A DNA stretch of 64,000 nt. It comes from Bacteroidota bacterium. GTDB lineage: Bacteria; Bacteroidota; Bacteroidia; Bacteroidales; UBA10428. Of this stretch, positions 6,207 to 30,349 are shown piece by piece. The notes beneath the pieces are model-generated. The model was given only the letters and a program-made list of their open reading frames with translations, searched no databases and had not been told where the DNA came from. Where the stretch lies: contig JAEZZA010000020.1 in the NCBI GenBank assembly GCA_023442525.1, forward strand, positions 100,776 through 164,775. The letters run 5' to 3'. The position numbers were made by a program, and so were the translations under genes. Each line of letters begins with the position of its first letter. Within the stretch, counting starts at the first letter, position 1.

Positions 6207-6217
6207 CATACCATTAC

Positions 6218-6244
6218 AAAAAACCCGCCTGAGGCGGGTTTTTT
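6218..6244. terminator. Bidirectional rho-independent terminator between convergent genes
   Basis: AAAAAACCCGCC-TGAG-GGCGGGTTTTTT: a perfect GC-rich stem flanked by an A-run and a T-run. Confidence 0.8.
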
Positions 6245-6247
6245 GCA

Positions 6248-8122
6248 TTAATCAAACATGTGTATATACCAGTTATTTTCGTCGAGAAGATAATTATAGA
6301 TTTGTTCGCGTTTGCTGGCAGGATATTTTTCAGCCACTCTCGATGCCAGGAATGAAGGATTGTTACGCCTCTTGGCTACGCGCATCAGATCATAAAATCT
6401 CTCTCCCTCGAATGCAAGTTCGCGAGCACGTTCATCCAACACCCCTTCTTCGAAGATCTGCTGCTTAAGAGCGAAATTGGTGCCAAGGTCCATGTACCCG
6501 GTAATATCATTAGTGAACGGATCGTGCAGATACTGAATATTATCCAGGGTGATCTGATCATCACCACTACCCAATCCTACTCTTCCTCTTACTCCCATTT
6601 GAAGCCGGGACTGATCGGTTGAATAATAAAGGTAACCATCATTCAGAATACCTTTGGCATAAGCTGTATTGGTTTTATAAGTACCTTTATCATTGAATAT
6701 CATATAGGTGTATATCTCAGCCAGGTAAAGATGAATTCCGCCTGCGCGGTAAACTATAAACCTGGCATCATCCTGGTATTGTCCGGTATAATATTTAAAT
6801 ACAACAGTATCCATGCCCTCCATGATATTGTTTACAGTTCGGGTATCATGCTGAGCTTTCATCTGTAGCATATATTGTACATTGGGAGTAAAGAACATTC
6901 CGCCGGCATTTCTTAAATATACATAGGAAGTCCCGAAACCTCTGAACGGATCCCCGGGAGTACCCCGTTGATTTGGATCCATCCTGCTGAGTGAAGGATT
7001 GGTGTGTCGGATTATTCTTTGGTACATCCATGTGGTTTCCCATTTATGTACAGCAATCTTGGTAGGTTTCAGCATATATTTGTAAGGAGGTATGGGAAGG
7101 AAAAGATCCTGCAGTTGATTTTGCTGGAAGTATTCCTTATCAAACCAGATAGTGTAAATGTGTTCATTCCGGTCTATCTCGCTAAAAATTCTTGACCAGG
7201 CACCATACGCAAATTCATCCGTTAATTGATAACGTTCGGTTTCGGCCGGATTTTTGACTATGGCTTCAAAATAATAAGTGGCTTTATGTAAATTACCGTC
7301 AGTAAGATACATTAGCCCAAGTAATGCATTCTTTGCCCACTCATTCCAGATAGTAACTTCCCATGTAGGATCGGGATTGTCAATATCATGCTTAACACCA
7401 ACAGCTTTTACCTTATCCTCGATTTCATTCGTGAAATAATCAATGATCATTGGGACATCATATAATTGTTTCTCAAGAATAATTTCCTGGTTATATGTTG
7501 TGTCATTACTAAAATAGCCGTCCTTAGAGAAAACAACATGCACACTGTCTACGTATTTTCCTTCGGAATTTACATATGCTTCAATCTCCTCCATTGTTGC
7601 GAGAGAAGCCGGAATAAAAGGCACTTTTCCATAAATTCTCACGGCTGTGAAATAGGCCCAGGCTCTCATACAAATAGCTTCACCATATAGCCTGTCGAAA
7701 TTGGTAATTTCACTCTTCGAGTCAAGTACTTCAGGATGCTCTCTCTCGAGAATATCAATGAAATTGTTGCAGGCCGAAATCAATTTGAAAAAATTTGTAG
7801 GTGAGGCGTATTTATTGGTTTTTGATATATTGAAATTATATATCTCCATAAGATCCGCATCTGCGTTTGGAGTTACCGTTAATAGGTCGCCCCTGAGCTC
7901 ACCCAATACGATCATTTGTTCAACAAGCTGTTGCTGTAAGGCATACAATCCCATTTCAACCGACCGGTATTCGTACCAATCATTAAATAGTTCGTCTTCG
8001 GTGACATCTATTGCCTGCTCAGGATTGAAAAAATCCTGGCACGACAAGATGAGCAATGAAAGACAAGCCAGTAATAAGATTTTGCCTTTATTTTTCATAG
8101 TGATCTTCATTTTCGCTTTCAT
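6248..8122 (-). CDS. SusD/RagB-family outer-membrane lipoprotein (pair 2)
   Basis: Lipoprotein signal LLLACLSLLILSC. C-terminal SusD signature ERARELAFEGERFYDLMR. It starts 2 nt after the SusC stop. Alternative Met starts exist within the first 9 codons. Confidence 0.85.
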   Translation of the reverse strand: MKAKMKITMKNKGKILLLACLSLLILSCQDFFNPEQAIDVTEDELFNDWYEYRSVEMGLYALQQQLVEQMIVLGELRGDLLTVTPNADADLMEIYNFNISKTNKYASPTNFFKLISACNNFIDILEREHPEVLDSKSEITNFDRLYGEAICMRAWAYFTAVRIYGKVPFIPASLATMEEIEAYVNSEGKYVDSVHVVFSKDGYFSNDTTYNQEIILEKQLYDVPMIIDYFTNEIEDKVKAVGVKHDIDNPDPTWEVTIWNEWAKNALLGLMYLTDGNLHKATYYFEAIVKNPAETERYQLTDEFAYGAWSRIFSEIDRNEHIYTIWFDKEYFQQNQLQDLFLPIPPYKYMLKPTKIAVHKWETTWMYQRIIRHTNPSLSRMDPNQRGTPGDPFRGFGTSYVYLRNAGGMFFTPNVQYMLQMKAQHDTRTVNNIMEGMDTVVFKYYTGQYQDDARFIVYRAGGIHLYLAEIYTYMIFNDKGTYKTNTAYAKGILNDGYLYYSTDQSRLQMGVRGRVGLGSGDDQITLDNIQYLHDPFTNDITGYMDLGTNFALKQQIFEEGVLDERARELAFEGERFYDLMRVAKRRNNPSFLASRVAEKYPASKREQIYNYLLDENNWYIHMFD

Positions 8123-8124
8123 TG

Positions 8125-11100
8125 TTAGAAACCAAGTTTAACGCCTATTATAAATTGCCGGGTTTGCGGAGTTAAGCCATAATCAATACCCTGGTGTATC
8201 TGCATGTAAGAAAAGCTGAATTCAGGATCGTACCCCAGATAATTGGTGAGAGTGAGCAGATTATTGGCCGAGGCATAAAACTCTGCATTCTTAAAGGACA
8301 AAAATTCTCCAGGTATCCTGTAACTAATCGAAACATTCTTAAGCCTTACAAATGATCCGTCTTCGATCCATCGGGTCGAGAAATCACTGTTTCCCTGCGG
8401 ATCGTTCCACAATGCTCTGGGTACGTTGGTAACCTGTTCTTCGTATTGCCAGCGATTCAGAACACTCTGACTCTGATTTTCAAGTCCGGTCATACGTTCG
8501 TTGTTGTATCTCACAAAATTGAACAAGTCGTTTCCGTATACAACCTGAATCATCGCACTTAATGTAAACCTCTTATAAGTCAGTGAGTTTACCAGGCTTC
8601 CAGTAAAGTCAGGCAATGGTGAACCAATTGCAGTTTTATCAAAATTGTTAATTACGCCGTCGGGAATTCCTTCGGGGCCTGATAAATCTGCATAGATTGC
8701 ATCTCCGGCGTGATATGCCATTCCTTTATCATTTACTAGTCCTGCGTTAACAGCATCTTCAGTGGAAGCATATACGCCCTTGAAAACATAACCGTAATAA
8801 CTGTTGGCCGGTGCGCCTTCCATGTTTATTATCTCAGCTCCGAGCAATTCGGTAACCAGCTTATTCCCTTTTATATCCAGTACTTCATTTTTAACGGTTG
8901 TAACAAATGCACTCAGATCCCATTTAAATGTTCCATTGTCTACAATCCTTCCGAACAACGAAACTTCAAGGCCCCTGTTGCGCATCTTTCCTGAATTTTC
9001 CATGCGGTAATCATATCCCAGGTATGCATTAACAGGGTTGAAGATCAGCATGTTTTCAGTTTGAGACTGGAATACGTCAACTGTTCCTGCTATCCGGTTG
9101 CCGAAAAGTGATAAATCGATACCGGTATTTACCTGAGTCACTATTTCATAACTCAGCTTGTTATTTTGTATAACTGCGGGATAGAGTCCTACTGTCTCAC
9201 GGAATTTTATAGCCTTATAATAATTGGAAGCACTTGATTCACCAATGTCATCATTTCCCGTTCTTCCATACGACAATCTCCATTTCAACTCTTCGAGCCA
9301 GTATTTGTCTCTCAGGAACGGCTCGCTTGATAAACGCCAGGCAAAACCAGCCGAATAAAACAGTCCGAAAGGTATATCCGCAATTTTTATGGTGTTGGCT
9401 GCTTCATCACCAACCCGTGATGAACCGTCAAGTGATAAGCTGGCGGTTAGAAGTATTTTATCCTTGAATGAATAATTCAGATTTTCATAAAACGACATCC
9501 AGTTCCATGTTCTGTTCTGTCCCCCGACTTCTCTTAAATTCGACTGACCAAAACTTATCGAACGATACTGGTCGTTGGCATGTGAATTCTTATTCAGTCC
9601 CCAGTCGAACTCAAATGTATTTGTCTGAATGTTGACACCGGTAAATGAAGACAACTGGTGATTCTCACCAAATGATCGGTTCACGCTCAGGTAGGAGTTA
9701 TTATAAAAACTACGGAATACATCTGTAGCAGCTTTAGCTACATTATATGCTTCATCATTGTAATAATGTTCCATTCCATGATTAGGCATGAACATCTGCT
9801 CTTTCAGCATATTGTATGTAAAATTGAACTTGCTTTTAAATGAAATCCGGCTGTTGATGGCAGCATCCAGTCCCATATAATATACAAAGCTTGTATTGGT
9901 GTTTGTAGCTTCGAAATTCTTCACAACAGCAACAGGATTGCTCACTCCAAGTTCATCAACTTCAGCATAAGTGGAAATTTCCCTGCCTTGATCGTCATAT
10001 TGGTATGGATTCAGCATGGGCGATTTGCCAAGTGCCGACAAAATGGGATTGGTTTGTTCTGATGTGGCCGCATCGGTTAGCGATCCTTTGTTATAGTTCA
10101 ACGACACACCTGCATTCATTTTCATCCAGCGAAAAACATTCAGGCGGCTTACAAATCGCAGATTATAGCCCTGGTAATCAGTGTTCTTAATAACACCATT
10201 ATTATTCATTAACCCGAATGAAAGTCCGTAAGTTGCTATTTCATCCCCTCCCTTAACCATAACGTTTACGTTCTGAAACATTGAATTCCGGAAGATTTCA
10301 TTTTGCCAGTTGGTGTTATGCTGATAGTCGATGAATCTTTTATCGTCAGGTTCCAGGTACAGGTTAGGATATTCAACCATGATGTTTTCCTCGAGCTTTC
10401 CTGATGAAAATAAAATTTCCTGCAGCAGTGTTTTATGCTGGGTAGCATTGAGCTGAGGGATTTTAATATCCGGTTTAAGCGAAAGACCTGTACTGAGATC
10501 GAGCTCAATTACTGTTTTAGTAACACTGGGATCCAGGGTTTCGATAAGAATAAGTCCGTTTGAACCTCTTGAACCCCACGATGCGGAAACAGCCGGATCC
10601 TTTATAACCGTCACTGCCGATACGTCATTGGGGTTTACTTCAACCAGCGGATTGAATGCGAAACCGTGGATATTTGATCCGAAGACTCCAACCGGAGTGG
10701 TGGGTATGCCATCTACGATATAAAGTGGCTGGTTTACAGCATTCAGAGAATTAATACCCCTGAGATTGATAAAGGTACCTGCTGAAGGGTGGCCTGATTT
10801 TTTAACAATATTTGCTCCGGTAACCCGGCCCTGTAAATATTCATCAATAGTAACCGGCTTCAACCCCTTAATATGCCTCATATCCACGGGAGAAAAGGCT
10901 GCAGCTATATCGCGCTTGCCCACCGATCGCGACATGATCTGAATCGGATCATCGTTGGAAGCCATATCCAGCGGAGTAAGGTATATATCAACCTGTTTCC
11001 GGCTGTTGAGGTATACTCTTTTAGCCTTAAAATCGGATGCCGGTGACACAATTAACCAGTCGGTCCCGGAAGTGGATATTACAGTGAATTCGCCGCTCTC

Positions 11101-11298
11101 ATTTGTAACATAAGGTAATTCAAATGAACCCGCTACACTAACCGAAACATCCTTCAGGGGCCGGCTCATATGATCGTAAATTTTCCCGGTTACAAGGACG
11201 GTATCCTGCGCCGATATCGTAAGTGCAACAGTTGCCATAATCGCGCTCAAGATTATTGACCGAAACCGGTTCCGATTAATTCTGTATGACATATTCAA
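8125..11298 (-). CDS. SusC-type TonB-dependent outer-membrane transporter (pair 2)
   Basis: 1057 aa. N-terminal carboxypeptidase-regulatory-like domain (VTGKIYDHMSRPLKDVSV), plug motifs (YIVDGIP), terminal aromatic residue (GVKLGF). Confidence 0.9.
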   Translation of the reverse strand: MNMSYRINRNRFRSIILSAIMATVALTISAQDTVLVTGKIYDHMSRPLKDVSVSVAGSFELPYVTNESGEFTVISTSGTDWLIVSPASDFKAKRVYLNSRKQVDIYLTPLDMASNDDPIQIMSRSVGKRDIAAAFSPVDMRHIKGLKPVTIDEYLQGRVTGANIVKKSGHPSAGTFINLRGINSLNAVNQPLYIVDGIPTTPVGVFGSNIHGFAFNPLVEVNPNDVSAVTVIKDPAVSASWGSRGSNGLILIETLDPSVTKTVIELDLSTGLSLKPDIKIPQLNATQHKTLLQEILFSSGKLEENIMVEYPNLYLEPDDKRFIDYQHNTNWQNEIFRNSMFQNVNVMVKGGDEIATYGLSFGLMNNNGVIKNTDYQGYNLRFVSRLNVFRWMKMNAGVSLNYNKGSLTDAATSEQTNPILSALGKSPMLNPYQYDDQGREISTYAEVDELGVSNPVAVVKNFEATNTNTSFVYYMGLDAAINSRISFKSKFNFTYNMLKEQMFMPNHGMEHYYNDEAYNVAKAATDVFRSFYNNSYLSVNRSFGENHQLSSFTGVNIQTNTFEFDWGLNKNSHANDQYRSISFGQSNLREVGGQNRTWNWMSFYENLNYSFKDKILLTASLSLDGSSRVGDEAANTIKIADIPFGLFYSAGFAWRLSSEPFLRDKYWLEELKWRLSYGRTGNDDIGESSASNYYKAIKFRETVGLYPAVIQNNKLSYEIVTQVNTGIDLSLFGNRIAGTVDVFQSQTENMLIFNPVNAYLGYDYRMENSGKMRNRGLEVSLFGRIVDNGTFKWDLSAFVTTVKNEVLDIKGNKLVTELLGAEIINMEGAPANSYYGYVFKGVYASTEDAVNAGLVNDKGMAYHAGDAIYADLSGPEGIPDGVINNFDKTAIGSPLPDFTGSLVNSLTYKRFTLSAMIQVVYGNDLFNFVRYNNERMTGLENQSQSVLNRWQYEEQVTNVPRALWNDPQGNSDFSTRWIEDGSFVRLKNVSISYRIPGEFLSFKNAEFYASANNLLTLTNYLGYDPEFSFSYMQIHQGIDYGLTPQTRQFIIGVKLGF

Positions 11299-11344
11299 AT
11301 TCGTTTATCGTGAAAAAACACTATTCTGATTGTTTGTAATGAAC

Positions 11345-12886
11345 CTAATTATCCCTTTGGACAAACTGAATATAATCGATCGCAAGACCATTGATGGTTA
11401 ATGTGCTTGGTCCCCTGTATTCGATCCGTATTTTAGCTTTTCCATATTCCTCGAGGTTATCGATCCAGAAATCAAATTTGTTATATCCCAATGCCTCCGG
11501 TGAATAACGTTTACCCGGAATAACGCTGTTAATGATACCACCGTTAAGCTGATAAACGCGATAGTCGAATGTTTTCACCAATTCATTATTGACATAAATA
11601 TCAAACACTCCGCCTACTCTCATTACTGTTCGAACTACAGCCAGATATCTTCGGGGGAAAAGGTTTTTGACATTAAATTCAACTGTGTACCGCCCGGTAT
11701 AACCCTGATCGAAGTAAACCCTGAAAATAGTATCATTATGGGCTGAGCCGACAAACTCCTTCCTGTAATCAAAAACCTTATCGGATACGTTGACAATACC
11801 CGGATTCCATGCATAAGCCTGGTTACCCAGTGTCTTGAGCCACCATTCAGCCTCATAGTAAACCGGGGCTTTATAAAGTGTGTCGGGCACTGTAAATTCG
11901 TAGTAATTATAAGCGTAACCATTACTGCAAATTGTTTTTTCACCCGGTTCATAATTGATCACCACGCTGTCGCCCAGAATATTTTTTAATTTAACCGTAT
12001 CTTTAACGGCCTTTTGCATAAACTCTTCCCGTTCCAGCATGTTTTCAAATACACCCCGCTTCAACAGGTAGGGTATTAAAACTTTGTATTGCCAATCCAG
12101 TGGTATATCATTGTGATCGGTATAACCGGCCTTCAATTTAGTGGCCATAATATCGAGAGCGGCATTATAATTCTCTTCCTGCGGGAAAACAACCGTTGCG
12201 GTTGCATTACGAAATTCTTTGGAAACCGGGAAGTACTCTACCTCGAACATATTGATAATTTCGGCAACGGTATCGTATATAGTATTTCCGTTCTCATCAA
12301 ATCCGATAGGTGTGCTCAAACGTTTATCCAGAATTACAGAGTCCTTACTGTCAATGTATCTTTTTAGCAGAGGATTTGTAAGCGTGATATATTCGTAAAG
12401 ATTCGGTTTGGGCATTGCAACTTTGCCCATCCTGAAGTACTTTCCATTCTTATATAAAGGGCTTTCGAATTCCAGGGGGATCTCATCATAAAATTTGTCT
12501 CCGCTCTGATGATTGAATAACCCGTATTTTTCCATGAAAGTCTGTACTTTTCTCTTACCAGTAACGGCAGTGGATTGTATGAAAAATTTCGAAACGTGAT
12601 AAGCCAGCACGCCGGTATTTACTGTATCGGTTTGTAAAAATTCAGCGAAAGCTTCGTTAGTAGGAGCAAAAATTGTATATGTATTGTTACCTGTAAATAA
12701 GGTATCATAACGGTTTTCTTTCAGGTACGTCACAAACGAGGATACGGAAGCATCCTGCTGAATGGCATCCCAGACACTCATGTTCCCTGTCACAGGGTAG
12801 CTGTTGTAATGTTCATCCCAGTCCTTTTTACAGGATGACAAGACGGATAAAACAGCTAAGGCAAGAATATATATTCTACAATTCAT
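11345..12886 (-). CDS. Fasciclin (FAS1) domain lipoprotein with a C-terminal beta-sandwich
   Basis: Lipobox LSVLSSC. FAS1 H1-like motif YTIFAPTNEAFAEF. The C-terminus ends ...INGLAIDYIQFV. Confidence 0.75.
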   Translation of the reverse strand: MNCRIYILALAVLSVLSSCKKDWDEHYNSYPVTGNMSVWDAIQQDASVSSFVTYLKENRYDTLFTGNNTYTIFAPTNEAFAEFLQTDTVNTGVLAYHVSKFFIQSTAVTGKRKVQTFMEKYGLFNHQSGDKFYDEIPLEFESPLYKNGKYFRMGKVAMPKPNLYEYITLTNPLLKRYIDSKDSVILDKRLSTPIGFDENGNTIYDTVAEIINMFEVEYFPVSKEFRNATATVVFPQEENYNAALDIMATKLKAGYTDHNDIPLDWQYKVLIPYLLKRGVFENMLEREEFMQKAVKDTVKLKNILGDSVVINYEPGEKTICSNGYAYNYYEFTVPDTLYKAPVYYEAEWWLKTLGNQAYAWNPGIVNVSDKVFDYRKEFVGSAHNDTIFRVYFDQGYTGRYTVEFNVKNLFPRRYLAVVRTVMRVGGVFDIYVNNELVKTFDYRVYQLNGGIINSVIPGKRYSPEALGYNKFDFWIDNLEEYGKAKIRIEYRGPSTLTINGLAIDYIQFVQRDN

Positions 12887-12895
12887 ATCTTCTGT

Positions 12896-14482
12896 TTATT
12901 TTGGTTCGAAACGAATATAATCACCGCTGAAGGTACCTGGAATAAGCGTTTTAATGGTAATAGTATGCTCTGAATACTTTATGAAATTAATAGTACCTAC
13001 TTCTTTATTTCCAAATGGATTATCTCTTGAGGCCTGTACATCGGGATCGCTTGACAAATCGATAGTTCCTCCTACTTTCTTTCCGTCAATGAATATTTCT
13101 ATAACGGCATTCTCTTTTTCAGGGCTGTAGAAATCGGCTCCCAAAAACACAGTATAAGTACCCTGTACAATTTTCGGTATGCGGAATGAGAAGGTAAAAT
13201 CTCCTTCAAGCTGAATGCAGTCGTTACTCCATAGATTCAGGTTTTCCTCTTCGGAATACAATACATAGGTAAGTTCGCTTCCACTGTATGATATTGAATT
13301 CAAAAGTGTTGAATCTTCAACAAGGTAACTACCTGTAAGCAATTGATACTCTTCAAACAAGGGCCTGTCGAAAAACTCGTATGTTTGTATGGCACGCGAC
13401 GGTTGCTGTTGCCTTAATATCCTGTTGATAAAATGAATAACCCCGCTTTGTGTGATAACATTACTCGCATCGTAGTTTAAACCAACATAATTAATAAAAA
13501 TTGTATCCCCAACACCTCTAACGATAGTATCAAAGATCTCCTTACCCTTGTTGATCACAATATCGATACCCCTGCCGTCAACATGAAGCGGAATATCGGA
13601 ATAGGTAGAGTAGTTGGTTGAGACATTCTGAAAATCATCCATGAACATCCTTTCCGACAGAACATGATAAGCCACATAATTATACAAAGGATTCAGCGGA
13701 TTATCATAATCGGTACGTGACGGGCTGATGAGTTTGGCAAGTTGATTAAAAGAGTATATGCCCCTCTTTGCATAAATGGAATCATGTTCTACAAACAGTG
13801 TAAATGGGAGGGTATTCTCATCAACTTTTGGATTTATATTAAAAAGTGCGTCAAGTCCTGTAGTATCTACAGCCTGAATAAACAGGGTAAATCCCCCGTT
13901 CGACTTAAGCCATTGATAGGCAGTATTTGTAACCGGAGAAAGAGCTCTGTTGACGATGTGAATAAAGCCATTCGAAAGCTCTATGTTTGTTTGGATTACC
14001 GGAGCCTGGTTATTTATTTTATAATAAGCCGTATCGGGCTGGATGATGAAACTTACAGCCAGAAAATCCTCCGTGAGTGTATATTCAGAGAAAGCTCCGA
14101 AAGGAAAATCATTTGAATTAATGGCTTCGTTTACCACATGATACCTTGACAGGTACCAGATATATTCCTCATCATTCAATAATTCCTGAAGTGAACCATA
14201 ATTGCTTTTCATGATAAAGCTGTCTATAGCCTCATTGGTGGGAAGGAAAAGAGTATACCCGTCACCGTTGGGATTATAGGCACTTAACGTTTTGTCAAGA
14301 CCCGAACGTTCAAGGATAGAAATAAAACTAGAGAATTGATCCTTATGCTCTGTGATATAATCATAGATGGTTTGTTTCTCAACCTCTTCAAACTCGATGG
14401 GCAGGGTCTCAGGATCGCACGATGCAGCCATTGATATACATACACCGGCGACAATAATCAGAAAATATAAGATCTGCTTCAT
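12896..14482 (-). CDS. Fasciclin (FAS1 x2) domain lipoprotein with a C-terminal beta-sandwich
   Basis: Lipobox SMAASC. FAS1 motifs YTLFLPTNEAIDSF and NGFIHIVNRAL, then a second module FTLFVEHDS and SGVIHFINRIL. The C-terminus ends ...FSGDYIRFEP. Confidence 0.8.
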   Translation of the reverse strand: MKQILYFLIIVAGVCISMAASCDPETLPIEFEEVEKQTIYDYITEHKDQFSSFISILERSGLDKTLSAYNPNGDGYTLFLPTNEAIDSFIMKSNYGSLQELLNDEEYIWYLSRYHVVNEAINSNDFPFGAFSEYTLTEDFLAVSFIIQPDTAYYKINNQAPVIQTNIELSNGFIHIVNRALSPVTNTAYQWLKSNGGFTLFIQAVDTTGLDALFNINPKVDENTLPFTLFVEHDSIYAKRGIYSFNQLAKLISPSRTDYDNPLNPLYNYVAYHVLSERMFMDDFQNVSTNYSTYSDIPLHVDGRGIDIVINKGKEIFDTIVRGVGDTIFINYVGLNYDASNVITQSGVIHFINRILRQQQPSRAIQTYEFFDRPLFEEYQLLTGSYLVEDSTLLNSISYSGSELTYVLYSEEENLNLWSNDCIQLEGDFTFSFRIPKIVQGTYTVFLGADFYSPEKENAVIEIFIDGKKVGGTIDLSSDPDVQASRDNPFGNKEVGTINFIKYSEHTITIKTLIPGTFSGDYIRFEPK

Positions 14483-14485
14483 TTC

Positions 14486-15958: not shown

Positions 15959-15975
15959 AAAAGATGATTTACATA

Positions 15976-19194: not shown

Positions 19195-19239
19195 ATCGGG
19201 AAATAAGCTTAATTACAGTTTAAAACAATAAATCATTGA

Positions 19240-21594: not shown

Positions 21595-21972
21595 TTGTGA
21601 TACTTTTTGGTAAAATTTTTAACAATCACGAATCCTCAATAATTACTGCAAATAAATAGAGTCCAAAACATGAGAGACTTAGCGTATTTTTTACGATAAG
21701 TTTCCGTTTTTTTTATTCTTTAAAAAAACAAAGTATTGGTATTTTCAATAATATTTTTATTATTTTTAACTGGGTATTTAGCGTCTCTGATAATAAACGC
21801 TATAATTACTATAATATATAGGTATCAATTTCAATCCGACTAAGCTTGAATTCAGACAGGACTAGTACTAACTTAAAACCTATTAACCGTCAACATTAAA
21901 TCAACAGGCTAATAATTAACCTTTTAGTAACTGAATAACAAATTAATTTTTCTAACTAAAAAACCTAGCTTT

Positions 21973-24900
21973 ATGAGGACTAAATTTTTACTATTCTTCT
22001 CATTTCTGTTGTGCGGGGTATTGAACGCCCAGGTGGACGATACCATTCGCACATTGATCATTACGGAGGTGAGGCTTGATGACGCAAGGCGCGGGTACGT
22101 TGAAATAGCCAACGTCGGCGATGCGACCGTCAACCTGTCATCTTTTGAGATTGGTCGAATTGATGCCTGGACTGCTCCATGGTCTACTCCGACAGCGAAC
22201 TGGATGATGCTGCCTGATAAGGATCTGGCTCCCGGCGAAACTTTCCTTATTGCTGCCATGCGCGATTTCCGTCTGGAAATGTACAAGTTAAATCCGGAAG
22301 AATTCGACCCGATGGAAGCCAATAAGGCAGAATTCTGGACACTTGCCGATCTCCAGTTACATGTTGATGAATCAAACTACAGTCCGGTTAATGACTCGAT
22401 CAGTCCTGCTGCCGGAAGAGAGCTGCTTACAGTATGGAGCGGCCGCGATTGCTTGTACCTGAGATATCATATCGGTGGTGATTCAGCAGTTATCGACCAG
22501 GTTAACGGTATCTTCGGAGGTGACGGAAATATTCGTCCTGATCATCCGAATGGCGGTAAAGGCCCTGTTAACGTGGCAGGTGTAACTGATGCTACCAATA
22601 CCTCTACCCTTGTAAGGAAATTCAAGGTTACGACCGGTAATACGGACTTCGCATCCTCAAAAGGTGAAGACCTTACCGAATCGGAATGGATTCCTATTCC
22701 GCACCAGGCTAGCGGCAGATGGGCTGACAACGTAAGAAGACTTTTCTGGACAGCCGGTTTCCATGGCAATGCAGTTCTTACCGAAACAACGCTGAAACCT
22801 CTTGCAAAGTATGAATCTGTTATTGATGTGGATTATGCAGGAAAGAAAATTACTGTTCCCTGGGGCGTAAGACGTGACGACTCGATTATGTTCATGTTTG
22901 AAAAAGTTCCGGGTCTGGCATGGCATTATGACTATGTTGCTTCATACGAAGACTCTGCTTATGTTTCAGCAAGAACAGGCGACACCCTTACCGTGTATGC
23001 CACAGGTAATGAACTTACTATGCGCAAATTCGGAATCGAGGTAGCTCCTCCAACCGACGATGCCAAGATCGTTGTTCCCAGGAAAGCTCCTAACGGAGAT
23101 GGCTTCTTTGACGGTGTTGACGATCCTCCATATACCATCAGCGATGGTCTTGTAAAGGATACCATCGGTACCTACCGTTGGGGTGGTATTCCGTTTGCTA
23201 CCCGTATCGATACACTGATGAAATATATTGAAGTTCCTGAAGGTGCTTCAGCAGAAATCGTTTACGTGGACACACCGGGAAGAACCGATCTCAAAGACGG
23301 TGATGTTCTGAAAGTGACTGCAGCTGATAATTCCACCAAGGAATACTATATAAAAGTTGATAAATACAGGAAGAGCCATAATGCATTCCTGAGTGCAATT
23401 ACATGGCCTGATATCCCCGAGGATTACAGGAATGTAAAAGGCTGGCTGGGTGATACGGTTCCTAATTTCTCACCTACGGTTTATAACTATATAGCTAATG
23501 TTCCTTCGGATGTACAGGGTATTCCGGCTTTGGTTGGAAAGAACCAGGCTCTCGAAGGCAAACATTCGGTTATCGTAGCCACGAACCTCGACGGCAGTCC
23601 TGCCAATCAGACTGTAACCTTCAATACGGTTGCCGAAGATGATACGACTTTCCGTACCTATACCGTACAATTGATTAAGGAAAAAGATCCCAGCACAATT
23701 CAACCCTGGGACGGTGATGCATTCATATCAGAATGGGTGTTCTGGGAGCAGTGGGATGCTACCAACTTCATTGAAGTTGCAAACCCAAGACCCAACGACA
23801 TCGATATGAGTCAGTATATGTTCGTTGTGACCTGGGAAAACAATCCGGCTACTGCCATTTCCGAAACCCGTACACAAGCTGACCAGTGGTTAAACCGCTA
23901 CCGTCGCTATGTACCAGGTTACAAATGGGTTGACAGCCTTACCTGGACAACCAATCCCGGTATGCTTACTCCCGACCTGGCAGTTAACCCTGTTGTAAAA
24001 GGTGGCGATGTATTTGTAATTGGCAGCATTACTGGTGGTGGTGCACATCCGCTCGACTGGAGTGCTTACAAACAATGCGATGTTAACCTGGCCGATAACA
24101 ATGCAAGATTCCCGAACCCATGGGGTGAAAATATAGGCGAAGGAATGGCTCACTGGATGAACCAGAATATTTACATGTTCAAAATACTGAACGATTCGAT
24201 AACCCGTGGTTTGAAGAATGCCAACGATCCGAACGACTTTGAACTTATAGATGTACTCGGTAACGGCGATGGTACCGATATGACAATCGGTGGACGTAAT
24301 GTTGATATGATTGAAACTTATATCAGAAAACCGTCGATCTATAAAGGAAATGCTGTAATAAAAGGTTCTGCCGGAGATACACCGGAAACTTCCGAATGGA
24401 TAATGAGAAATGCAGCATACTATGCCAGCCTTGGTGCAGGATGGCCCGATCAGATATGGTGGGTTGTTAATGATATCGGAATTCATCTGTTGAATGAAGT
24501 AACCATTTTCAAATCAACTGTAAGTTCTGCTATTTATAAAGTAAGTCCGGGATATACCGAAGAAGAAACCATACGTGGTATTGTTGATGGTACAACTGTC
24601 AGCGAATTCTTTGGTAATCTGATTAAAGCCGACCCGGGTCAGCAACTGAACGTTGTGAGCGCTACCAGCGGCGAAACTCTTGCCGATGACGATGCTCCGG
24701 CCAACGGTGATACCCTGGTTGTTCTTTCAGCCGATCTGAAGAATACATCCAAATATATCCTTGAAGTTACAGCAGAAGGTTTGAATAGCGATGCAGTTCT
24801 TGTATCAGATGCATGGACTATTACCGTTGATGGTGCTGAAGGTGTTATTTCGGATTTCGATCCTCTGATTACTTTCAAGGAATTCATGGACAACATCGAA

Positions 24901-25854
24901 GTTCCATCAGGTGCATTAGTAATTCCTACTTATCCCGATGGTAAATATGTTCCTTACAAGATGTTGAACTATGATACTACTTATGCGCCAGTATTGGTGA
25001 GCGACAATATCACCATTCTGGTAACAGCTGAAAACGGTGTTGATAAGATTACTTATACACTTCAGCCGAACCATTCTGAAACTGATGCATTCGTAACTTC
25101 ATCCATGTTTGGAGTAGATCAGAACCTGTCGATTATCTTCCTGGTACCCGACGGTATCCCCGTTTCTTCATTCCTGTCCTATCTCATCCCAAGTACCGGA
25201 GCTGAAATCGAACTCAGAGATAAGTTCGGATTCGTCAGAGAGATGGGTAATGTAATGCTGGACGACTCACTATACGTGACCGCTGAAGATGGAGTAACTA
25301 TACGCAAGTATGGAATTCAGATGCTTGGTGGCCTTACTGTAGAGGATATTGCTTATGTAATTTCCGAGGTTTATCTTGTTGATCAGGAAACCATGTGGAT
25401 AACTGGTGAAAATATCACTACTACACTTAGCGTTGCTGATTTCAAAGCAAATCTTATCGCTTCAACCGGAGCAACAATTGCTGTAACCAATGCCAGCGGA
25501 GCTCCAAAGAACTCCGGTAACCTGGCTGAGGGTGACCTTGTAAAGGTTATTTCTGCAAACGGTTTGACAATTGTTACTTACCAGATTGATGTGATCCTGG
25601 TAGGTCTTGACGACAAGTCACAGGATGACGTACAGATATTCCCGAACCCCAGCAGAGGATTGTATAATCTGAAGGGCGTGAAGGCCGGTTCAAGAATACA
25701 GGTACATAACATTCTGGGTGTGAAAGTTGCTGAAAAGGTAGCAATCGCCTACAGCGAAACTATCTCGATTGAAAAGGAAACCAACGGTATTTATTTCATC
25801 ACTGTAAGTGATAATGATAACGTTGTTGGCCGCTATAAAGTTGTTAAAAAATAA
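21973..25854 (+). CDS. Large secreted non-catalytic protein: two lamin-tail-like domains, a cadherin-like beta-sandwich, repeated ~80-aa modules and a type A T9SS C-terminal sorting domain
   Basis: Signal peptide ending LNAQ. LTD-like LIITEVRLDDARRGYVEIANVGDATVNLSSFEI and AFISEWVFWEQWDATNFIEVANPRPNDIDMSQYMF. CTD VQIFPNPSRG...GIYFITV...YKVVKK (nt 25630-25851). Confidence 0.7.
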   Translation: MRTKFLLFFSFLLCGVLNAQVDDTIRTLIITEVRLDDARRGYVEIANVGDATVNLSSFEIGRIDAWTAPWSTPTANWMMLPDKDLAPGETFLIAAMRDFRLEMYKLNPEEFDPMEANKAEFWTLADLQLHVDESNYSPVNDSISPAAGRELLTVWSGRDCLYLRYHIGGDSAVIDQVNGIFGGDGNIRPDHPNGGKGPVNVAGVTDATNTSTLVRKFKVTTGNTDFASSKGEDLTESEWIPIPHQASGRWADNVRRLFWTAGFHGNAVLTETTLKPLAKYESVIDVDYAGKKITVPWGVRRDDSIMFMFEKVPGLAWHYDYVASYEDSAYVSARTGDTLTVYATGNELTMRKFGIEVAPPTDDAKIVVPRKAPNGDGFFDGVDDPPYTISDGLVKDTIGTYRWGGIPFATRIDTLMKYIEVPEGASAEIVYVDTPGRTDLKDGDVLKVTAADNSTKEYYIKVDKYRKSHNAFLSAITWPDIPEDYRNVKGWLGDTVPNFSPTVYNYIANVPSDVQGIPALVGKNQALEGKHSVIVATNLDGSPANQTVTFNTVAEDDTTFRTYTVQLIKEKDPSTIQPWDGDAFISEWVFWEQWDATNFIEVANPRPNDIDMSQYMFVVTWENNPATAISETRTQADQWLNRYRRYVPGYKWVDSLTWTTNPGMLTPDLAVNPVVKGGDVFVIGSITGGGAHPLDWSAYKQCDVNLADNNARFPNPWGENIGEGMAHWMNQNIYMFKILNDSITRGLKNANDPNDFELIDVLGNGDGTDMTIGGRNVDMIETYIRKPSIYKGNAVIKGSAGDTPETSEWIMRNAAYYASLGAGWPDQIWWVVNDIGIHLLNEVTIFKSTVSSAIYKVSPGYTEEETIRGIVDGTTVSEFFGNLIKADPGQQLNVVSATSGETLADDDAPANGDTLVVLSADLKNTSKYILEVTAEGLNSDAVLVSDAWTITVDGAEGVISDFDPLITFKEFMDNIEVPSGALVIPTYPDGKYVPYKMLNYDTTYAPVLVSDNITILVTAENGVDKITYTLQPNHSETDAFVTSSMFGVDQNLSIIFLVPDGIPVSSFLSYLIPSTGAEIELRDKFGFVREMGNVMLDDSLYVTAEDGVTIRKYGIQMLGGLTVEDIAYVISEVYLVDQETMWITGENITTTLSVADFKANLIASTGATIAVTNASGAPKNSGNLAEGDLVKVISANGLTIVTYQIDVILVGLDDKSQDDVQIFPNPSRGLYNLKGVKAGSRIQVHNILGVKVAEKVAIAYSETISIEKETNGIYFITVSDNDNVVGRYKVVKK

Positions 25855-25877
25855 ATAGCAGGCTTTAAATAATGATT

Positions 25878-25904
25878 AAGCCCCGCTTCGGCGGGGCTTT
25901 TTTA
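25878..25904 (+). terminator. Rho-independent terminator after the LTD/T9SS gene
   Basis: AAGCCCCGC-TTCG-GCGGGGCTT followed by TTTTT. Confidence 0.8.
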
Positions 25905-25946
25905 TTATATTTATGGCACATAATTAATATTACTCAATCAGCTATT

Positions 25947-26900
25947 ATGAAAAAGATGCTTTTCTGGTCATTCATTATTATTATTATGAATGTCACAGTT
26001 CTTATGGGACAGCAACCGGTGAAAATTCACGGGAAATTGTCCGTTCAGGGGGTACAACTAATGGATGAAAAAGGTAAGCCGGTAATGCTTCAGGGCGTCA
26101 GCTACGGCTGGCATAATTGGTGGCCGAGATTTTATAATAAGGAATCGGTTACGTGGTTGGCAAACGACTGGAATTGCACTGTTGTCAGGGCCGCGATGGG
26201 TGTTGGTCCAAAAGGATCTTATCTTGATAAAACCGAATGGTCGCAGAAGCTTATCGAAGATGTTGTTGAAGGGGCCATTGAAAACGACGTCTACGTTATA
26301 ATAGACTGGCACAGTCACCAGGTTGAAACCGAGGCGGCTAAGAAATTTTTCGCTCAAATGGCTAAAAAATACGGTAAATATCCTCACGTCATTTATGAGA
26401 TTTTCAATGAACCGGTTCACGATTCATGGGAGGTTATTAAAAACTATTCGATTGAAGTCATCAAAGCCATACGTGAACACGATCCGGATAATATCATCCT
26501 GATTGGCAGTCCTCACTGGGATCAGGATGTCCACATTGCAGCCGACAGCCCCATAGAGGGTTATAAAAACCTGATGTATACACTTCACTTTTATGCAGCT
26601 ACTCATAAACAGGATCTTCGCGAAAGGGGAAATTATGCATTAAGTAAAGGTCTTCCGCTTTTCGTTTCGGAATCAGCAGGAATGTCAGCCAACGGAGATG
26701 GTCCTATTAATTATGAAGAGTGGAATCTTTGGATCGACTGGATGAAGAAAAACAAAATTAGCTGGGTTTCCTGGTCAATTGCCGATAAAAACGAAACATG
26801 CTCCATGTTGCTTCCTTCTGCAGCATCAACCGGGGGATGGAAAGAAACGGATATGAAGGAATCAGGGATTAAAACCCGTGAATTACTGAAAAAGAAATAA
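25947..26900 (+). CDS. Glycoside hydrolase family 5 endo-beta-1,4-glucanase-like enzyme
   Basis: Start placed at MKKMLFWSF (signal peptide). The upstream part of the listed ORF covers the terminator. GH5 motifs: VIIDWHSH, acid/base IYEIFNEP, HFYAATH, nucleophile region LFVSESAG, SWVSWS. Confidence 0.85.
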   Translation: MKKMLFWSFIIIIMNVTVLMGQQPVKIHGKLSVQGVQLMDEKGKPVMLQGVSYGWHNWWPRFYNKESVTWLANDWNCTVVRAAMGVGPKGSYLDKTEWSQKLIEDVVEGAIENDVYVIIDWHSHQVETEAAKKFFAQMAKKYGKYPHVIYEIFNEPVHDSWEVIKNYSIEVIKAIREHDPDNIILIGSPHWDQDVHIAADSPIEGYKNLMYTLHFYAATHKQDLRERGNYALSKGLPLFVSESAGMSANGDGPINYEEWNLWIDWMKKNKISWVSWSIADKNETCSMLLPSAASTGGWKETDMKESGIKTRELLKKK

Positions 26901-27013
26901 TTAAAGTCCGGGGGGATTTCCCGGGCTTGATATTGCTGCGATTTAATAACCTGTACCTGCGAACAGAACAGGCATAGACGATTTTTCGTATAACGAAGGT
27001 AAAGCCGTTTAAT

Positions 27014-30000
27014 ATGAAAAAAATTTACATAACAACTGGTTTGGCAGGGTTGCTGCATCTGTTGTTGATCACGGGAATTTACGCCCAATCGGTTGTAATT
27101 AATGTCAATACGACTGCCGAAAAGAAAGCCATTTCACCTTATATTTTTGGTAAGAACAACAGTCTTTCAGATAATTTTCTTGGATCGGGAGATCTCAGTG
27201 CCAGCCAATGGCAGCGATTGAAAGACATGGGCATCAAAATGTTCAGGGAAAACGGCGGTAATAATTCAACCAAGTACAATTGGAGAAGGAAACTGTCGAG
27301 CCACCCCGACTGGTATAACAATGTATATGCCCACGACTGGGGTTATGCAGCCAGGTCGTTACAGCAAAACATACCTTCGGCTCAGGGTATGTGGGCTTTT
27401 CAGCTAATTGGAAAAGCTGCAAAAACCTCTGCTCACAATTTTAACGACTGGGGTTACAATGGTTCAAAATGGTGGGAGGGCTGCGGTCAGAATCTTGCCG
27501 GAGGCGGCGTGGTTAATCCCGCTGGTGGCACGGATGCCCTGGTCGAAGGAAACCCTGATTTGTACCTGGAGACCTGGAATGCAGATTCAACAACCGGAAT
27601 TCTTGATCATTGGTTTGGACCAGATGGTATCGGACTTGACAGCAACAAGATACTTTACTGGAGCATGGATAACGAACCTGAAATTTGGAACGGTACACAC
27701 GATGACGTATGGCCTGTACAGCCTTCAGCTGAAGAATTCATGCAAATGTATTTTGCAACGGCTAAAAAAGCCCGGGCTAAATTTCCGGGAATAAAGCTCA
27801 CTGGTCCTGTTGTGGCTAATGAATGGCAATGGTATTGCTGGGCAGGCGATCTGATTTCCTATAAAGGGAAGAAATACCCCTGGCTGGAGTACTTTATTCT
27901 CAGAGTGGCCGAAGAACAGCAGTTAAGCGACATCAGGCTACTCGATGTACTTGATATTCATTTTTATCCAAACGAAACCGACCCGGCACAAATAGTTCAG
28001 TTACATCGAATATTTTTTGACTCAACATACGTTTACCCGGGTGCCAATGGCATAAAGAAAACAGGATCAAGCGGCTGGGACAATTCTCTTAATAAAGAAT
28101 ATATATTTAAGCGTTGTAACGCCTGGCTTGCAAAGTATATGGGGGCCGGTCACGGCGTAAAACTGGCAGTCACCGAAACTGCAATTAAGAAAAGAGACGA
28201 TCCTGATTTGACAGCCAACTGGTATGCCTCCACATTGGGTGAATTTGCACGAAACGGGGTTGAAATATTCACTCCATGGGACTGGGTGACCGGTATGTCG
28301 GAAGTAGTGCATCTTTTTACTCACTACTGTAAACCAAACATACTTCCCGCAATATCTTCAAACGAAAATTATGTTTCAGCCTACCCTACCATCAATAATT
28401 CAGGCGATTCAATAACTGTTTTTTTTGTTAACAGGCATCTTAAAGATTCGAAGCCCGTTACATTATATCTTGAGAATTTCTATGTGGATGACGGCCCTTA
28501 TAATTTTTACACCCTTTCGGATCTGCCGGCATCGGAAACCTTTGTTTCTCATACCCAAAATGCTCTCAACCTGAGTACAGTAGTAGTTAAGGACAATATT
28601 ATCCAATTAATACTGGATCCGTTATCGGTTTCGGCTCTTGTCCTGAAAAGGGGCAAGTTTGATATTGCACCTTCACTTATCGACACCTTTGCTACCCAGG
28701 CCACCAAAGATCTTTATGAATTCCTTAAGTCTCAGTTCGGCAATCACATTATCTCGGGGCAGACGCACGACTATTATAATCAACTGAAAACCGTTGCCGG
28801 TAAATCACCTATGCTCCGGGCAGGCGATTTTCAGCACTATACACAGGGATACCCATATCTGTGGTCAAATGAAATCGGCGGTCACACTTACGGGTACGAC
28901 ACTCAGGCTAATACAGTGAGCACGCTCATTTCGTGGTACAATGGTACCGATAAAAAAGGAATCGTTTCCATGCAATGGCACTGGCACGATCCCCTGAGCG
29001 ATTCTACCAGTAATGTCAGCACCAATACTTTCTATACCGATCAGACCAGTTTCGATATCCGGAGGGCGGTTATCCCGGGAACCTTTGAATATGACTGCGT
29101 AATTCGGGATATTGACAGTATTGCCACACAGCTTAAAAAATTCCAGTCAGCCGGAATTCCGGTATTATGGCGACCCCTGCACGAAGCTGGCGGAGGATGG
29201 TTCTGGTGGGGAGCTCACGGCCCCGAACCCTGCCTGGCACTTTGGGATATTCTTATTGAACGTTTGAAAAATCATCATCAACTCCATAATCTGATTTGGG
29301 TTTGGTCAAGTCCCGAGCCGGATTGGTACCCCGGTAACGATAAGGTGGATATCATTGGATATGATTCCTATCCGGGTGCGTTCAATTATACCAACCAGAA
29401 GGCAATATTTGATAACCTGTACACCATTACCGATGGTGAAAAGCTTATCGCGATGACTGAAAACGGTCCTATTCCTGATCCCGTGGCGTGCATTGAAGGT
29501 GATTCCCCCTGGTTGTTTTTCATGTCATGGAATAATCTGGTGGAAACTCAAAACACAACAGATCATATCCGTAGTGTTTATAATAATCCTCTGGTGGTTA
29601 AACTTGAAAGTTTCGATCCTCCGGAATACAGTGTTACTATTAAGTTGCTTCGTGATCTGACTTTTGAACCTCTGCAATCCAACGCAGTTGTATTTAACGG
29701 GGTTACCGAAGTTACTGATTTTGAAGGTGAAGTTACTTATACTGTGACTCCCGGAAGTTATGATTACCTGGTACAGCTAACATCATACGAAAGTAAGGAG
29801 GGTACTTTCGAAATTACATCGGATACATCCTTTACCATATTATTACAGCAAACTCATGCAAATATAAGGATCCGGTTAAGAGAAGAGTCTCGTCCGGTTG
29901 CAAACGCCGTTGTGGCATTGAATGGCGACACCATGTTGACCAGTAGCCTTGGAGACGCCGTGTACAATCAACGTCCGGTTAGTCAAATATATTCCTACAC

Positions 30001-30349
30001 TGTAAATAAAGAAGGATATGAAGAGCTTTCAGGCACGGTACAACTGGCGCGTGATACAATTGTACAACTTGAAATGACCCGAATTGTACTGTCAGCAGGA
30101 TATGGATCCGGAGATATAAAATTCACCATCTGGCCAAATCCTGCTGATGAATACGTTCATTTCGGATTGCCGGACGGCAATCAGCCCGTTCAGGTACAAA
30201 TTACAGGCGTAAACGGCGGTTTTACGAAAAATACATCGGTACAGAATCCGCCCTGGCGAATCAGTGTAAACGACCTGGCTCCGGGGATTTATGTTCTGCA
30301 GGTTATTTGTAAGGAATCGGTTTATAAGGGGCTGTTTTCAAAACAGTGA
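27014..30349 (+). CDS. Bifunctional GH44 (endoglucanase/xyloglucanase-like) - GH26 (beta-mannanase-like) enzyme with two beta-sandwich domains and a type A T9SS sorting domain
   Basis: GH44-like (aa ~27-546): ENGGNNSTKYNW, YWSMDNEPEIW, LDVLDIHFYP, KLAVTETA. GH26-like (aa ~552-864): QWHWH, VLWRPLHEAGGGWFWWG, IAMTENG. CTD IWPNPADEYVHF...GIYVLQV (nt 30116-30346). Confidence 0.8.
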   Translation: MKKIYITTGLAGLLHLLLITGIYAQSVVINVNTTAEKKAISPYIFGKNNSLSDNFLGSGDLSASQWQRLKDMGIKMFRENGGNNSTKYNWRRKLSSHPDWYNNVYAHDWGYAARSLQQNIPSAQGMWAFQLIGKAAKTSAHNFNDWGYNGSKWWEGCGQNLAGGGVVNPAGGTDALVEGNPDLYLETWNADSTTGILDHWFGPDGIGLDSNKILYWSMDNEPEIWNGTHDDVWPVQPSAEEFMQMYFATAKKARAKFPGIKLTGPVVANEWQWYCWAGDLISYKGKKYPWLEYFILRVAEEQQLSDIRLLDVLDIHFYPNETDPAQIVQLHRIFFDSTYVYPGANGIKKTGSSGWDNSLNKEYIFKRCNAWLAKYMGAGHGVKLAVTETAIKKRDDPDLTANWYASTLGEFARNGVEIFTPWDWVTGMSEVVHLFTHYCKPNILPAISSNENYVSAYPTINNSGDSITVFFVNRHLKDSKPVTLYLENFYVDDGPYNFYTLSDLPASETFVSHTQNALNLSTVVVKDNIIQLILDPLSVSALVLKRGKFDIAPSLIDTFATQATKDLYEFLKSQFGNHIISGQTHDYYNQLKTVAGKSPMLRAGDFQHYTQGYPYLWSNEIGGHTYGYDTQANTVSTLISWYNGTDKKGIVSMQWHWHDPLSDSTSNVSTNTFYTDQTSFDIRRAVIPGTFEYDCVIRDIDSIATQLKKFQSAGIPVLWRPLHEAGGGWFWWGAHGPEPCLALWDILIERLKNHHQLHNLIWVWSSPEPDWYPGNDKVDIIGYDSYPGAFNYTNQKAIFDNLYTITDGEKLIAMTENGPIPDPVACIEGDSPWLFFMSWNNLVETQNTTDHIRSVYNNPLVVKLESFDPPEYSVTIKLLRDLTFEPLQSNAVVFNGVTEVTDFEGEVTYTVTPGSYDYLVQLTSYESKEGTFEITSDTSFTILLQQTHANIRIRLREESRPVANAVVALNGDTMLTSSLGDAVYNQRPVSQIYSYTVNKEGYEELSGTVQLARDTIVQLEMTRIVLSAGYGSGDIKFTIWPNPADEYVHFGLPDGNQPVQVQITGVNGGFTKNTSVQNPPWRISVNDLAPGIYVLQVICKESVYKGLFSKQ

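Follow-up and report, generated by a model that had tools for sequence, protein, structure and literature searches.

What are three fasciclin lipoproteins and an LTD-domain protein doing beside two SusC/SusD importer pairs and a set of glycanases? This is the question raised by a locus at positions 6248-30349 of a 64,000-nt stretch of DNA from a Bacteroidota bacterium (assembly GCA_023442525.1, contig JAEZZA010000020.1, positions 100,776-164,775), which is called the window below. A preliminary description had presented the locus as a single hybrid of polysaccharide utilization locus (PUL) and type IX secretion system (T9SS) components. The description as such was confirmed, its interpretation in part only. 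Comparison with related genomes resolved the locus into two modules, one for uptake (the cassette) and one of enzymes; the two lie apart in Mariniphaga anaerophila, and other genomes join them in various ways. The cassette, FAS(769)-SusC-SusD-FAS(528)-FAS(513)-SusC-SusD, is strongly conserved, old and widespread. We consider it reasonably probable, judging from the encoded proteins and their relatives, that the two joined modules serve the use of plant glycans with beta-1,4 linkages and gluco or manno configuration, the likeliest being glucomannan plus beta-glucan in soluble or amorphous form. Domains were called from Pfam and NCBIfam profile scores against curated cut-offs (22 bits for Fasciclin), and the features of the locus, in window coordinates, are as follows, with GH standing for glycoside hydrolase and ORF for open reading frame.

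6207-6247, no strand assigned: bidirectional intrinsic terminator (AAAAAACCCGCCTGAGGCGGGTTTTTT) at the 3' end of the minus arm, past SusD2, from reading of the sequence and a terminator scan
6248-8122, minus strand: SusD2, a divergent SusD/RagB-family lipoprotein of 620-624 aa (SusD_RagB 37.6 bits, SusD-like_3 31.8 bits)
8125-11298, minus strand: SusC2, a SusC/RagA TonB-dependent transporter with a Plug domain (TIGR04056 589.7 bits)
11345-12886, minus strand: FAS513, a single N-terminal FAS1 domain followed by ~350 aa without annotation (Fasciclin 33.7 bits)
12896-14482, minus strand: FAS528, two FAS1 domains followed by a C-terminal region rich in beta structure (Fasciclin 100.3 bits, in 2 stretches)
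14486-15958, minus strand: SusD1, a canonical SusD-family lipoprotein of 490 aa (SusD_RagB 124.9 bits, SusD-like_3 53.1 bits)
15976-19194, minus strand: SusC1, a SusC/RagA TonB-dependent transporter (TIGR04056 671.3 bits, TIGR04057 signature 52.9 bits)
19240-21549, long ORF to 21594, minus strand: FAS784, the first cassette gene, ~4 tandem FAS1 domains (Fasciclin 88.3 bits, in 3 stretches)
21550-21972, no strand: AT-rich divergent intergenic region (~26% GC), the presumed promoter region of both arms
21973-25854, plus strand: LTD/T9SS protein of 1293 aa (LTD 36.8 bits, Por_Secre_tail 33 bits, TIGR04183 33.9 bits)
25878-25905, plus strand: intrinsic terminator with a 9-bp GC-rich stem, a UUCG loop and a U-run
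25947-26900, long ORF from 25872, plus strand: GH5 of 317 aa (Pfam Cellulase 189.8 bits)
27014-30349, plus strand: GH44, GH26, a beta-sandwich spacer and a T9SS tail in one protein of 1111 aa (GH26 189.2 bits, GH44 80.1 bits)

The ten genes with their order and strands, the gaps of 2-46 nt within the minus arm and the AT-rich spacer between the arms (378 bp and 25.7% GC when taken from the longest ORFs) were all re-found as first described, and profile support was obtained for every one of the proposed domain calls, i.e. three Fasciclin, two SusC, two SusD, LTD, GH5, GH44 and GH26. Two gene starts were revised. The long ORF of FAS784 (784 aa) contains an internal ATG at 21549 that is picked by the gene caller and gives a protein of 769 aa, in agreement with the length of its homologs; this is probably the start, in which case the spacer measures 423 bp. 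The long-ORF start of GH5 at 25872 is spurious, since the terminator at 25878-25905 sits within its first codons, and from the sequence the true start is ATG 25947, yielding 317 aa in line with homologs of 317-321 aa; after this correction the gap between the LTD and GH5 genes is 92 nt and contains the terminator, instead of 17 nt. Two adjacent susC-susD pairs are present, all with scores above cut-off, and carbohydrate-active enzymes (CAZymes; GH5, GH44 and GH26) lie beside them on the divergent arm. By gene content, this is a bona fide Sus-like, i.e. SusC/D-type glycan, locus. It can also be regarded as discrete, because it is bordered by housekeeping genes (a PRC-barrel protein, a methyltransferase, DUF2400, an ABC ATPase, TatA and SecDF).

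The evidence that the minus arm is a unit in its own right comes from related genomes. A scan with one genome per species found relatives of the first fasciclin gene encoded in at least 212 species genomes, and 80 loci were retained for gene order. The 80 genomes concerned were all labelled Bacteroidales, Bacteroidia or Bacteroidota, many of them Prolixibacteraceae (Mariniphaga, Draconibacterium, Tangfeifania, Sunxiuqinia), and cultured carriers include Mariniphaga anaerophila DSM 26910, Tangfeifania diversioriginum DSM 27063 and Bacteroidales bacterium 6E. The first fasciclin gene was followed by SusC-SusD-FAS-FAS-SusC in 64 of the 80 loci, the remainder being short contigs or broken ORFs, and SusD2 was next in order in every locus retrieved from the opposite end. 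The synteny check that had been proposed thus came out clearly, the order being held in every locus long enough to display it. Single proteins gave the same picture: FAS784 in its 769-aa form had 907 homologs, and the 120 listed were 746-821 aa long (most 765-775) and at least 52% identical; SusD2 had 996, with 56-82% identity among those listed; and orthologs of FAS513 (43-64% identity) come after FAS528 in the same fraction of loci, 64/80. Across lineages the identity of the cassette proteins is 50-65%. Some genomes have two whole copies of the cassette with differing upstream neighbors (L022/L023, which share one contig of the Prolixibacteraceae UBA1413, and the pairs L059/L067, L074/L078, L028/L041 and L021/L055).

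What the system acts upon has to be read from its enzymes. For GH5, the closest matches in the PDB were 5i2u (E 5e-117), 5ihs, a GH5 of Cytophaga hutchinsonii (5e-80), and 1h11 of the Endoglucanase 5A series (5e-75), all of which we take to be GH5_2 endoglucanases. Our own reading of the motifs places the catalytic glutamates at E180, within NEP 179-181, and E266 in long-ORF numbering, and by these relatives the protein would be a GH5_2-like endo-beta-1,4-glucanase. Its N-terminus (MKKMLFWSFIIIIMNVTVLMGQQ...) has the form of a type I signal peptide without a lipobox Cys, there is no T9SS tail, and the enzyme is probably periplasmic. The GH44 domain scored 80.1 bits against a cut-off of 25.1 and has DNEP (E222) and TETA (E388), again by our own reading; its PDB relatives are the endoglucanases/xyloglucanases 3fw6, 2yih and 2e0p. 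The GH26 domain of the same protein has RPLHE (E724) and TENG (E816), read in the same way, and is related to the endo-beta-1,4-mannanases 3zm8, 6hpf and 3wdq. The 1111-aa protein is therewith predicted to be a bifunctional secreted enzyme, glucanase/xyloglucanase and endo-mannanase in one chain. In related loci GH5 is joined by a GH5-CBM6 protein (CBM, carbohydrate-binding module) whose closest PDB matches are CtCelH, FnCel5A and TmCel5A, which we take to be GH5_25 enzymes; this subfamily combines glucan and mannan activity. Side-chain or exo-acting enzymes were found in none of the loci examined. The simplest substrate common to these enzymes would be a backbone in which glucose and mannose are beta-1,4-linked, i.e. 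glucomannan, plus soluble or amorphous beta-glucans, and of the substrates proposed earlier for the GH set, beta-1,4-glucan and (gluco)mannan are in accord with the nearest PDB relatives of all three domains. As to the remark that periplasmic exo-glycosidases are missing, no exo-glycosidase adjoins the locus, but the absence of periplasmic enzymes is doubtful, given that GH5 is most simply placed there.

The same enzymes could be read as a dedicated cellulose system, in which the LTD protein is a cellulose-binding adhesin, GH5 and GH44 nick the chains, the cassette threads long cellodextrins into the periplasm to the GH5 there, in the way suggested for C. hutchinsonii, and GH26 is an accessory. 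GH5 endoglucanases (GH5-CBM6 and the 317-aa GH5) are indeed the commonest partners of the LTD protein, being present in 16 of 22 LTD-bearing upstream regions, and the likeness of the window GH5 to a GH5 of C. hutchinsonii (5ihs) leads to an organism with a CHU_2103 (GH5)/CHU_1280 (GH9) double mutant, periplasmic cellulases and unknown importers (PMC6247017). However, no GH9, GH8, GH48, GH6, processive enzyme or cellulose-specific CBM (CBM2, CBM3, CBM10) was found in any locus examined, and the GH26 mannanase, often with CBM35, is equally persistent. GH5_25 and GH44 enzymes, moreover, act on glucomannan and soluble glucans, and we regard a system devoted to cellulose as unlikely. That the locus serves xyloglucan utilization, chiefly through the GH44 xyloglucanase and GH5, appears very improbable: the PDB relatives of GH44 do include the xyloglucanase Cel44C (2yih, 2ykk), but the side-chain enzymes that go with this substrate (GH31, GH2, GH29/95, GH43/51) are in none of the loci, the GH5 relatives are of the GH5_2 and GH5_25 types and not GH5_4 xyloglucanases, and a GH26 mannanase does not suit xyloglucan.

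With glucomannan and soluble beta-glucan as the likely substrates, the next matter is how the enzymes leave the cell. Two type A T9SS tails had been claimed for the plus arm. That of the LTD protein is well above cut-off (TIGR04183, 33.9 against 23 bits); that of the GH44-GH26 protein is borderline, and is backed by its motifs, the usual WPNP...GIY, and by its relatives, since the separate GH44 and GH26 proteins of two related loci (L086, L087) have Por_Secre_tail matches without any mark of weakness. A Sec signal combined with a C-terminal sorting domain, as expected of type A cargo, is thus present, with a borderline score in the case of GH44-GH26. Elsewhere in the window, a T9SS-related cluster at 53275-59191 on the minus strand encodes a PorP/SprF-family protein, a PKD/PD40 protein and a type B cargo of 1195 aa that ends in a CHU_C sorting domain. 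This suggests a T9SS in the organism, with the core genes (PorK/L/M/N, SprA) lying beyond the window.

For the three fasciclin proteins of the cassette, membership in the FAS1 family is clear from the profile scores (88.3, 100.3 and 33.7 bits for FAS784, FAS528 and FAS513) and, for FAS784, from the FAS1 fold of its AlphaFold model (pLDDT 78.6, pTM 0.74), the best Foldseek matches of which were the four-FAS1 arrays of periostin and TGFBIp over the full length (E 1e-20), with the carotenoid-binding AstaP also among the matches. FAS528 likewise matched FAS1 domains of TGFBIp and periostin by sequence in the PDB. Relaxed Pfam scans of the C-terminal regions of the fasciclin proteins gave no significant match. 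We tried to explain the three as recent paralogs and rejected this, as their mutual similarity is weak and at the level of FAS1 motifs, yet each has orthologs of 45-65% identity; from these comparisons, the three are old, distinct and non-redundant components. In all three, as in both SusD proteins, acidic residues come after a lipobox Cys (FAS784, C20 then KKED; FAS528, C22 then DPE; FAS513, C19 then KKDWDE; SusD2, ...LILSC|QDFF), which is compatible with the surface-export signal of Bacteroidota lipoproteins. FAS528 and FAS513 are encoded, in this order, right after susD1, which is the position of SusE/F. It had been said that no SusE/F-type binding protein is visible, and at the Pfam level this stands, the two proteins having no similarity to SusE/F; by place, on the other hand, these two lipoproteins fill exactly the SusE/F position. 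We infer that the fasciclin proteins are surface-exposed glycan-binding partners of SusC/D in the role of SusE/F or of a surface glycan-binding protein (SGBP). A search of the literature on fasciclin or LTD proteins with SusC/D, PUL, T9SS or cellulose gave generic mentions of an "adhesion domain" and no functional link; the literature searched neither ties a fasciclin protein to SusC/D loci nor mentions the cassette. The earlier statement that no role had been assigned to the fasciclin and LTD proteins was correct.

The LTD protein is built of a signal peptide, an LTD domain, cadherin-like beta-sandwich repeats and the type A T9SS tail. Its LTD match is marginal (PF00932, 36.8 against a gathering score of 34.3) and a second LTD-like stretch at residues ~580-620 is weak (E 0.054); precomputed matches to the domain are present in most of its homologs. 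There are 524 of these, nearly all of the 120 listed having a query coverage of 97-100%, and every name given to them is either "hypothetical" or "T9SS sorting domain protein". The model (pLDDT 84.8, pTM 0.56) is an all-beta chain of sandwich domains for which Foldseek returned only contactin/multi-Ig, cadherin, S-layer and alpha-2-macroglobulin-type chains with low TM-scores, and recognized no catalytic fold. The PDB sequence search matched the T9SS tail only, and relaxed Pfam scans of fragments gave nothing significant, with no CBM or catalytic assignment. Taken with the model, the protein is probably a T9SS-anchored, non-catalytic surface protein with a binding or scaffold function, although it may have a hidden activity.

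If the two modules are separable, are they joined by more than chance? Among the related loci, members of the enzyme set were found in 22 of the 55 that have at least 8 kb of upstream sequence and in 9 of 34 downstream regions. The module is upstream and divergent in the window and 13 related loci, and its usual order in the clade of the window, as seen in ten loci, is LTD, GH5-CBM6, GH5 and GH44/GH26, the GH5-CBM6 gene being absent from the window locus itself. In one locus (L011) it is upstream and co-directional. Downstream of the cassette, enzyme genes are convergent in six loci (L086, L102, L109-L111, L146), among the cases of downstream convergence being a Draconibacterium metagenome-assembled genome with CBM35-GH26-tail, GH5 (319 aa) and GH44-tail after SusD2, and co-directional in two (L087, L119), with a CBM35-GH26-tail gene, a WbsX-like gene and an SASA esterase following in the former. 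In M. anaerophila (L084) the LTD protein, GH5-CBM6 and GH5 (321 aa) form an operon of their own at 10001-16916 of FQUM01000001, on another contig than the cassette; GH2, GH92 and DUF4972/Laminin_G_3 genes are near this operon on the opposite strand. Because the same families recur in at least four geometries across lineages of 50-65% identity, the pairing of the LTD/enzyme module with the cassette seems to be functional rather than accidental.

With the parts so assigned, a pathway can be envisioned. The GH44-GH26 bifunctional enzyme, exported by Sec and the T9SS, would cleave the polymer outside the cell, and the LTD protein, exported by the same route, may hold substrate or enzymes on the surface. 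The fasciclin lipoproteins could then act as surface glycan-binding partners of the two SusC/D importers, which would take different classes or sizes of oligosaccharide, and the GH5_2-like endoglucanase would shorten the imported oligosaccharides in the periplasm. Final breakdown, by exo-glycosidases or phosphorylases, and regulation would have to be encoded elsewhere in the genome. A bolder version, to which we give somewhat less than even chances, is that the fasciclin lipoproteins are an unrecognized class of SusC/D partners, for glycan binding or threading, in a distinct type of dual-importer "utilisome" widespread in anaerobic Bacteroidales/Prolixibacteraceae, and that the LTD proteins are a new family of T9SS-anchored non-catalytic scaffolds tethering beta-glucan or mannan fibers, or the GH5, GH26 and GH44 enzymes.

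Several points weigh against the glucomannan pathway. About half of the cassette copies with enough flank carry no CAZyme within 10 kb, and some are flanked instead by genes for a GFO/IDH/MocA oxidoreductase and a 3-keto-disaccharide hydrolase, so that the substrate of the cassette could be broader or different. We know of no bacterial FAS1 domain shown to bind a plant glycan, and FAS1 ligands are diverse (integrins, carotenoids and others). The GH subfamilies were taken from PDB neighbors and not assigned through dbCAN, the placement of GH5 in the periplasm follows solely from the absence of other sorting signals, and the tail of the GH44-GH26 protein falls just short of both curated cut-offs (24.2 against 27 and 22.8 against 23). 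The first of these points, together with the separation of the modules in M. anaerophila, would also agree with arms that are neighbors without any functional link, the cassette importing something else (a different glycan, a glycoprotein or a nutrient that is not a carbohydrate) while the glycanases are a secreted public-good set; that AstaP binds a carotenoid illustrates how different the ligand of a FAS1 protein in another organism can be. What is hard to explain by such an arrangement, in the absence of selected co-inheritance or co-regulation, is that the same enzyme families came to lie by the cassette in at least four independent arrangements. Hybrid two-component regulators adjoining SusC/D are, furthermore, a mark of glycan loci, and such regulators adjoin the cassette in relatives. 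We therefore hold it to be quite unlikely that the arms are unlinked.

Other upstream neighbors of the cassette deserve description. In ten loci a divergent GFO/IDH/MocA oxidoreductase gene precedes the cassette; five of these have a gene for a 3-keto-disaccharide hydrolase (DUF1080), and eight one for an unannotated protein of 773-793 aa. These neighbors hint at an oxidative 3-keto-glycoside route tied to the same importer. In four other loci (L002, L015, L019, L077) a T9SS-tailed protein of 828-846 aa with no other Pfam domain is encoded just upstream of the cassette, its gene is preceded by one of the phospholipase D family, and in L015 an extra 589-aa ORF lies between it and the cassette.

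The regulation of the locus is the last part of the question. The minus arm, from the sequence, is probably a single operon closed by a strong terminator. That the plus arm is also a single unit is not evident; it would comprise at least two transcription units, because a strong terminator follows the LTD gene, beginning 24 nt past its stop codon (25878-25905; GCCCCGC-UUCG-GCGGGGC and then a U-run, dG -29.1 kcal/mol, z -4.69). In the divergent spacer there is no exact Bacteroidetes -7 motif TAnnTTTG, sigma-70 matches are no more frequent than in shuffled sequence, and an alignment of 14 related spacers contained no conserved block. No regulator (hybrid two-component system [HTCS], extracytoplasmic function [ECF]/anti-sigma or SusR) or exo-glycosidase is within or adjoining 6248-30349 in the window. 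The preliminary description had given the lack of a regulator as a trait of the system, and this part does not hold. In 20 of the 55 loci a protein of ~1390 aa with Reg_prop, Y_Y_Y, HisKA, HATPase_c, Response_reg and HTH_AraC domains, by its architecture a canonical HTCS, is encoded directly upstream of the first fasciclin gene on the same strand; as the lineage of the window has none there, the absence is lineage-specific. Regulators of this family sense glycans, and a locus-linked sensor or regulator is typical of PULs and not obligatory. Eight of the HTCS-bearing loci have an LTD homolog upstream, mostly divergent from the HTCS, with GH5 beside it in six. The only HTCS-like sensor in the window is a 1047-aa protein at 49065-52208 (minus strand), in which an HTCS-type periplasmic sensor (Reg_prop repeats, Y_Y_Y) is fused to a SpoIIE/PP2C phosphatase that replaces the kinase, receiver and AraC domains. 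It was considered as the regulator of the locus and rejected, its identity to the HTCS of the relatives being 21.6%, no better than generic family similarity. The window also encodes, at 59304-62963 (minus strand), a 1219-aa HAMP/HisKA/HATPase histidine kinase with an N-terminal region of ~900 aa without annotation.

Bacteroidota use polysaccharides chiefly through SusC/D loci, whose accessory surface proteins vary widely and are for the most part uncharacterized. If it is true that the fasciclin proteins bind glycans, the folds known among surface glycan-binding proteins would increase by one and bacterial FAS1 would gain a defined role, the first biochemical one for bacterial multi-FAS1 proteins. 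It would also provide a handle on the capture of insoluble plant fiber and on the turnover of hemicellulose and cellulose by non-cellulosomal anaerobic Bacteroidota. Since cultured carriers exist, the system is directly testable.

Several known systems come near the locus. Candidatus Paraporphyromonas polyenzymogenes is likewise an anaerobic member of the Bacteroidales with multi-catalytic, T9SS-tailed GH5/GH26 enzymes that have unannotated "hypothetical" binding regions, but its genome is without any SusC/D-CAZyme loci, whereas the present locus is centered on SusC/D (PMC5831590). C. hutchinsonii has T9SS endoglucanases and periplasmic GH5/GH9 endoglucanases and no cellobiohydrolases; its GH5 CHU_2103/GH9 CHU_1280 double mutant is unable to digest cellulose, and CHU_1280 is reported to be periplasmic (review PMC6247017). 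It has no PUL, however, and its importers are unknown, in contrast to the dedicated dual SusC/D cassette found here (review PMC6247017). The BoManPUL of Bacteroides ovatus is likewise a SusC/D system for beta-mannan: a GH26 endo-mannanase works at the surface, another endo-enzyme, in the periplasm, on the oligosaccharides once imported, and the locus encodes two glycan-binding proteins. It differs in that it has a single SusC/D pair and a GH36 side-chain enzyme, that its surface enzyme is lipid-anchored and not a T9SS cargo, that its SGBPs are unrelated to fasciclin, and that GH44, GH5 and LTD proteins are absent (PMC5217682, PMC6556568). Periostin and TGFBIp (PDB 5yjh, 5nv6) align as four-FAS1 arrays with the whole of the FAS784 model, but at 12-13% identity only, and FAS784 belongs, as a lipoprotein of the bacterial outer membrane, to an operon for nutrient uptake. 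The closest characterized parallel is the chitin locus ChiUL of Flavobacterium johnsoniae, in which a T9SS enzyme with dual SusC/D has been characterized genetically and biochemically (PMC5127042), and which contradicts the earlier view that T9SS enzymes feeding a Sus-like importer are known from only a few, mostly uncultured, taxa. Like the present locus, ChiUL has two SusC/D pairs and a depolymerase with two catalytic domains that is exported by the T9SS and not lipid-anchored, and its substrate is a recalcitrant beta-1,4 polymer (PMC5127042). Unlike it, ChiUL is directed at chitin (GH18, GH20), provides within the locus for two-component regulation, inner-membrane transport and exo-cleavage (GH20), and includes neither fasciclin lipoproteins nor an LTD protein (PMC5127042). 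Of the traits first called non-canonical, the combination of the T9SS with dual SusC/D is already known, the SusE/F question is a matter of naming, and the absence of a regulator is an artifact of looking at one lineage. What had not been described before is the cassette itself, with its three fasciclin lipoproteins and its wide conservation, along with an LTD surface protein that is conserved as well and linked to GH5, GH26 and GH44.

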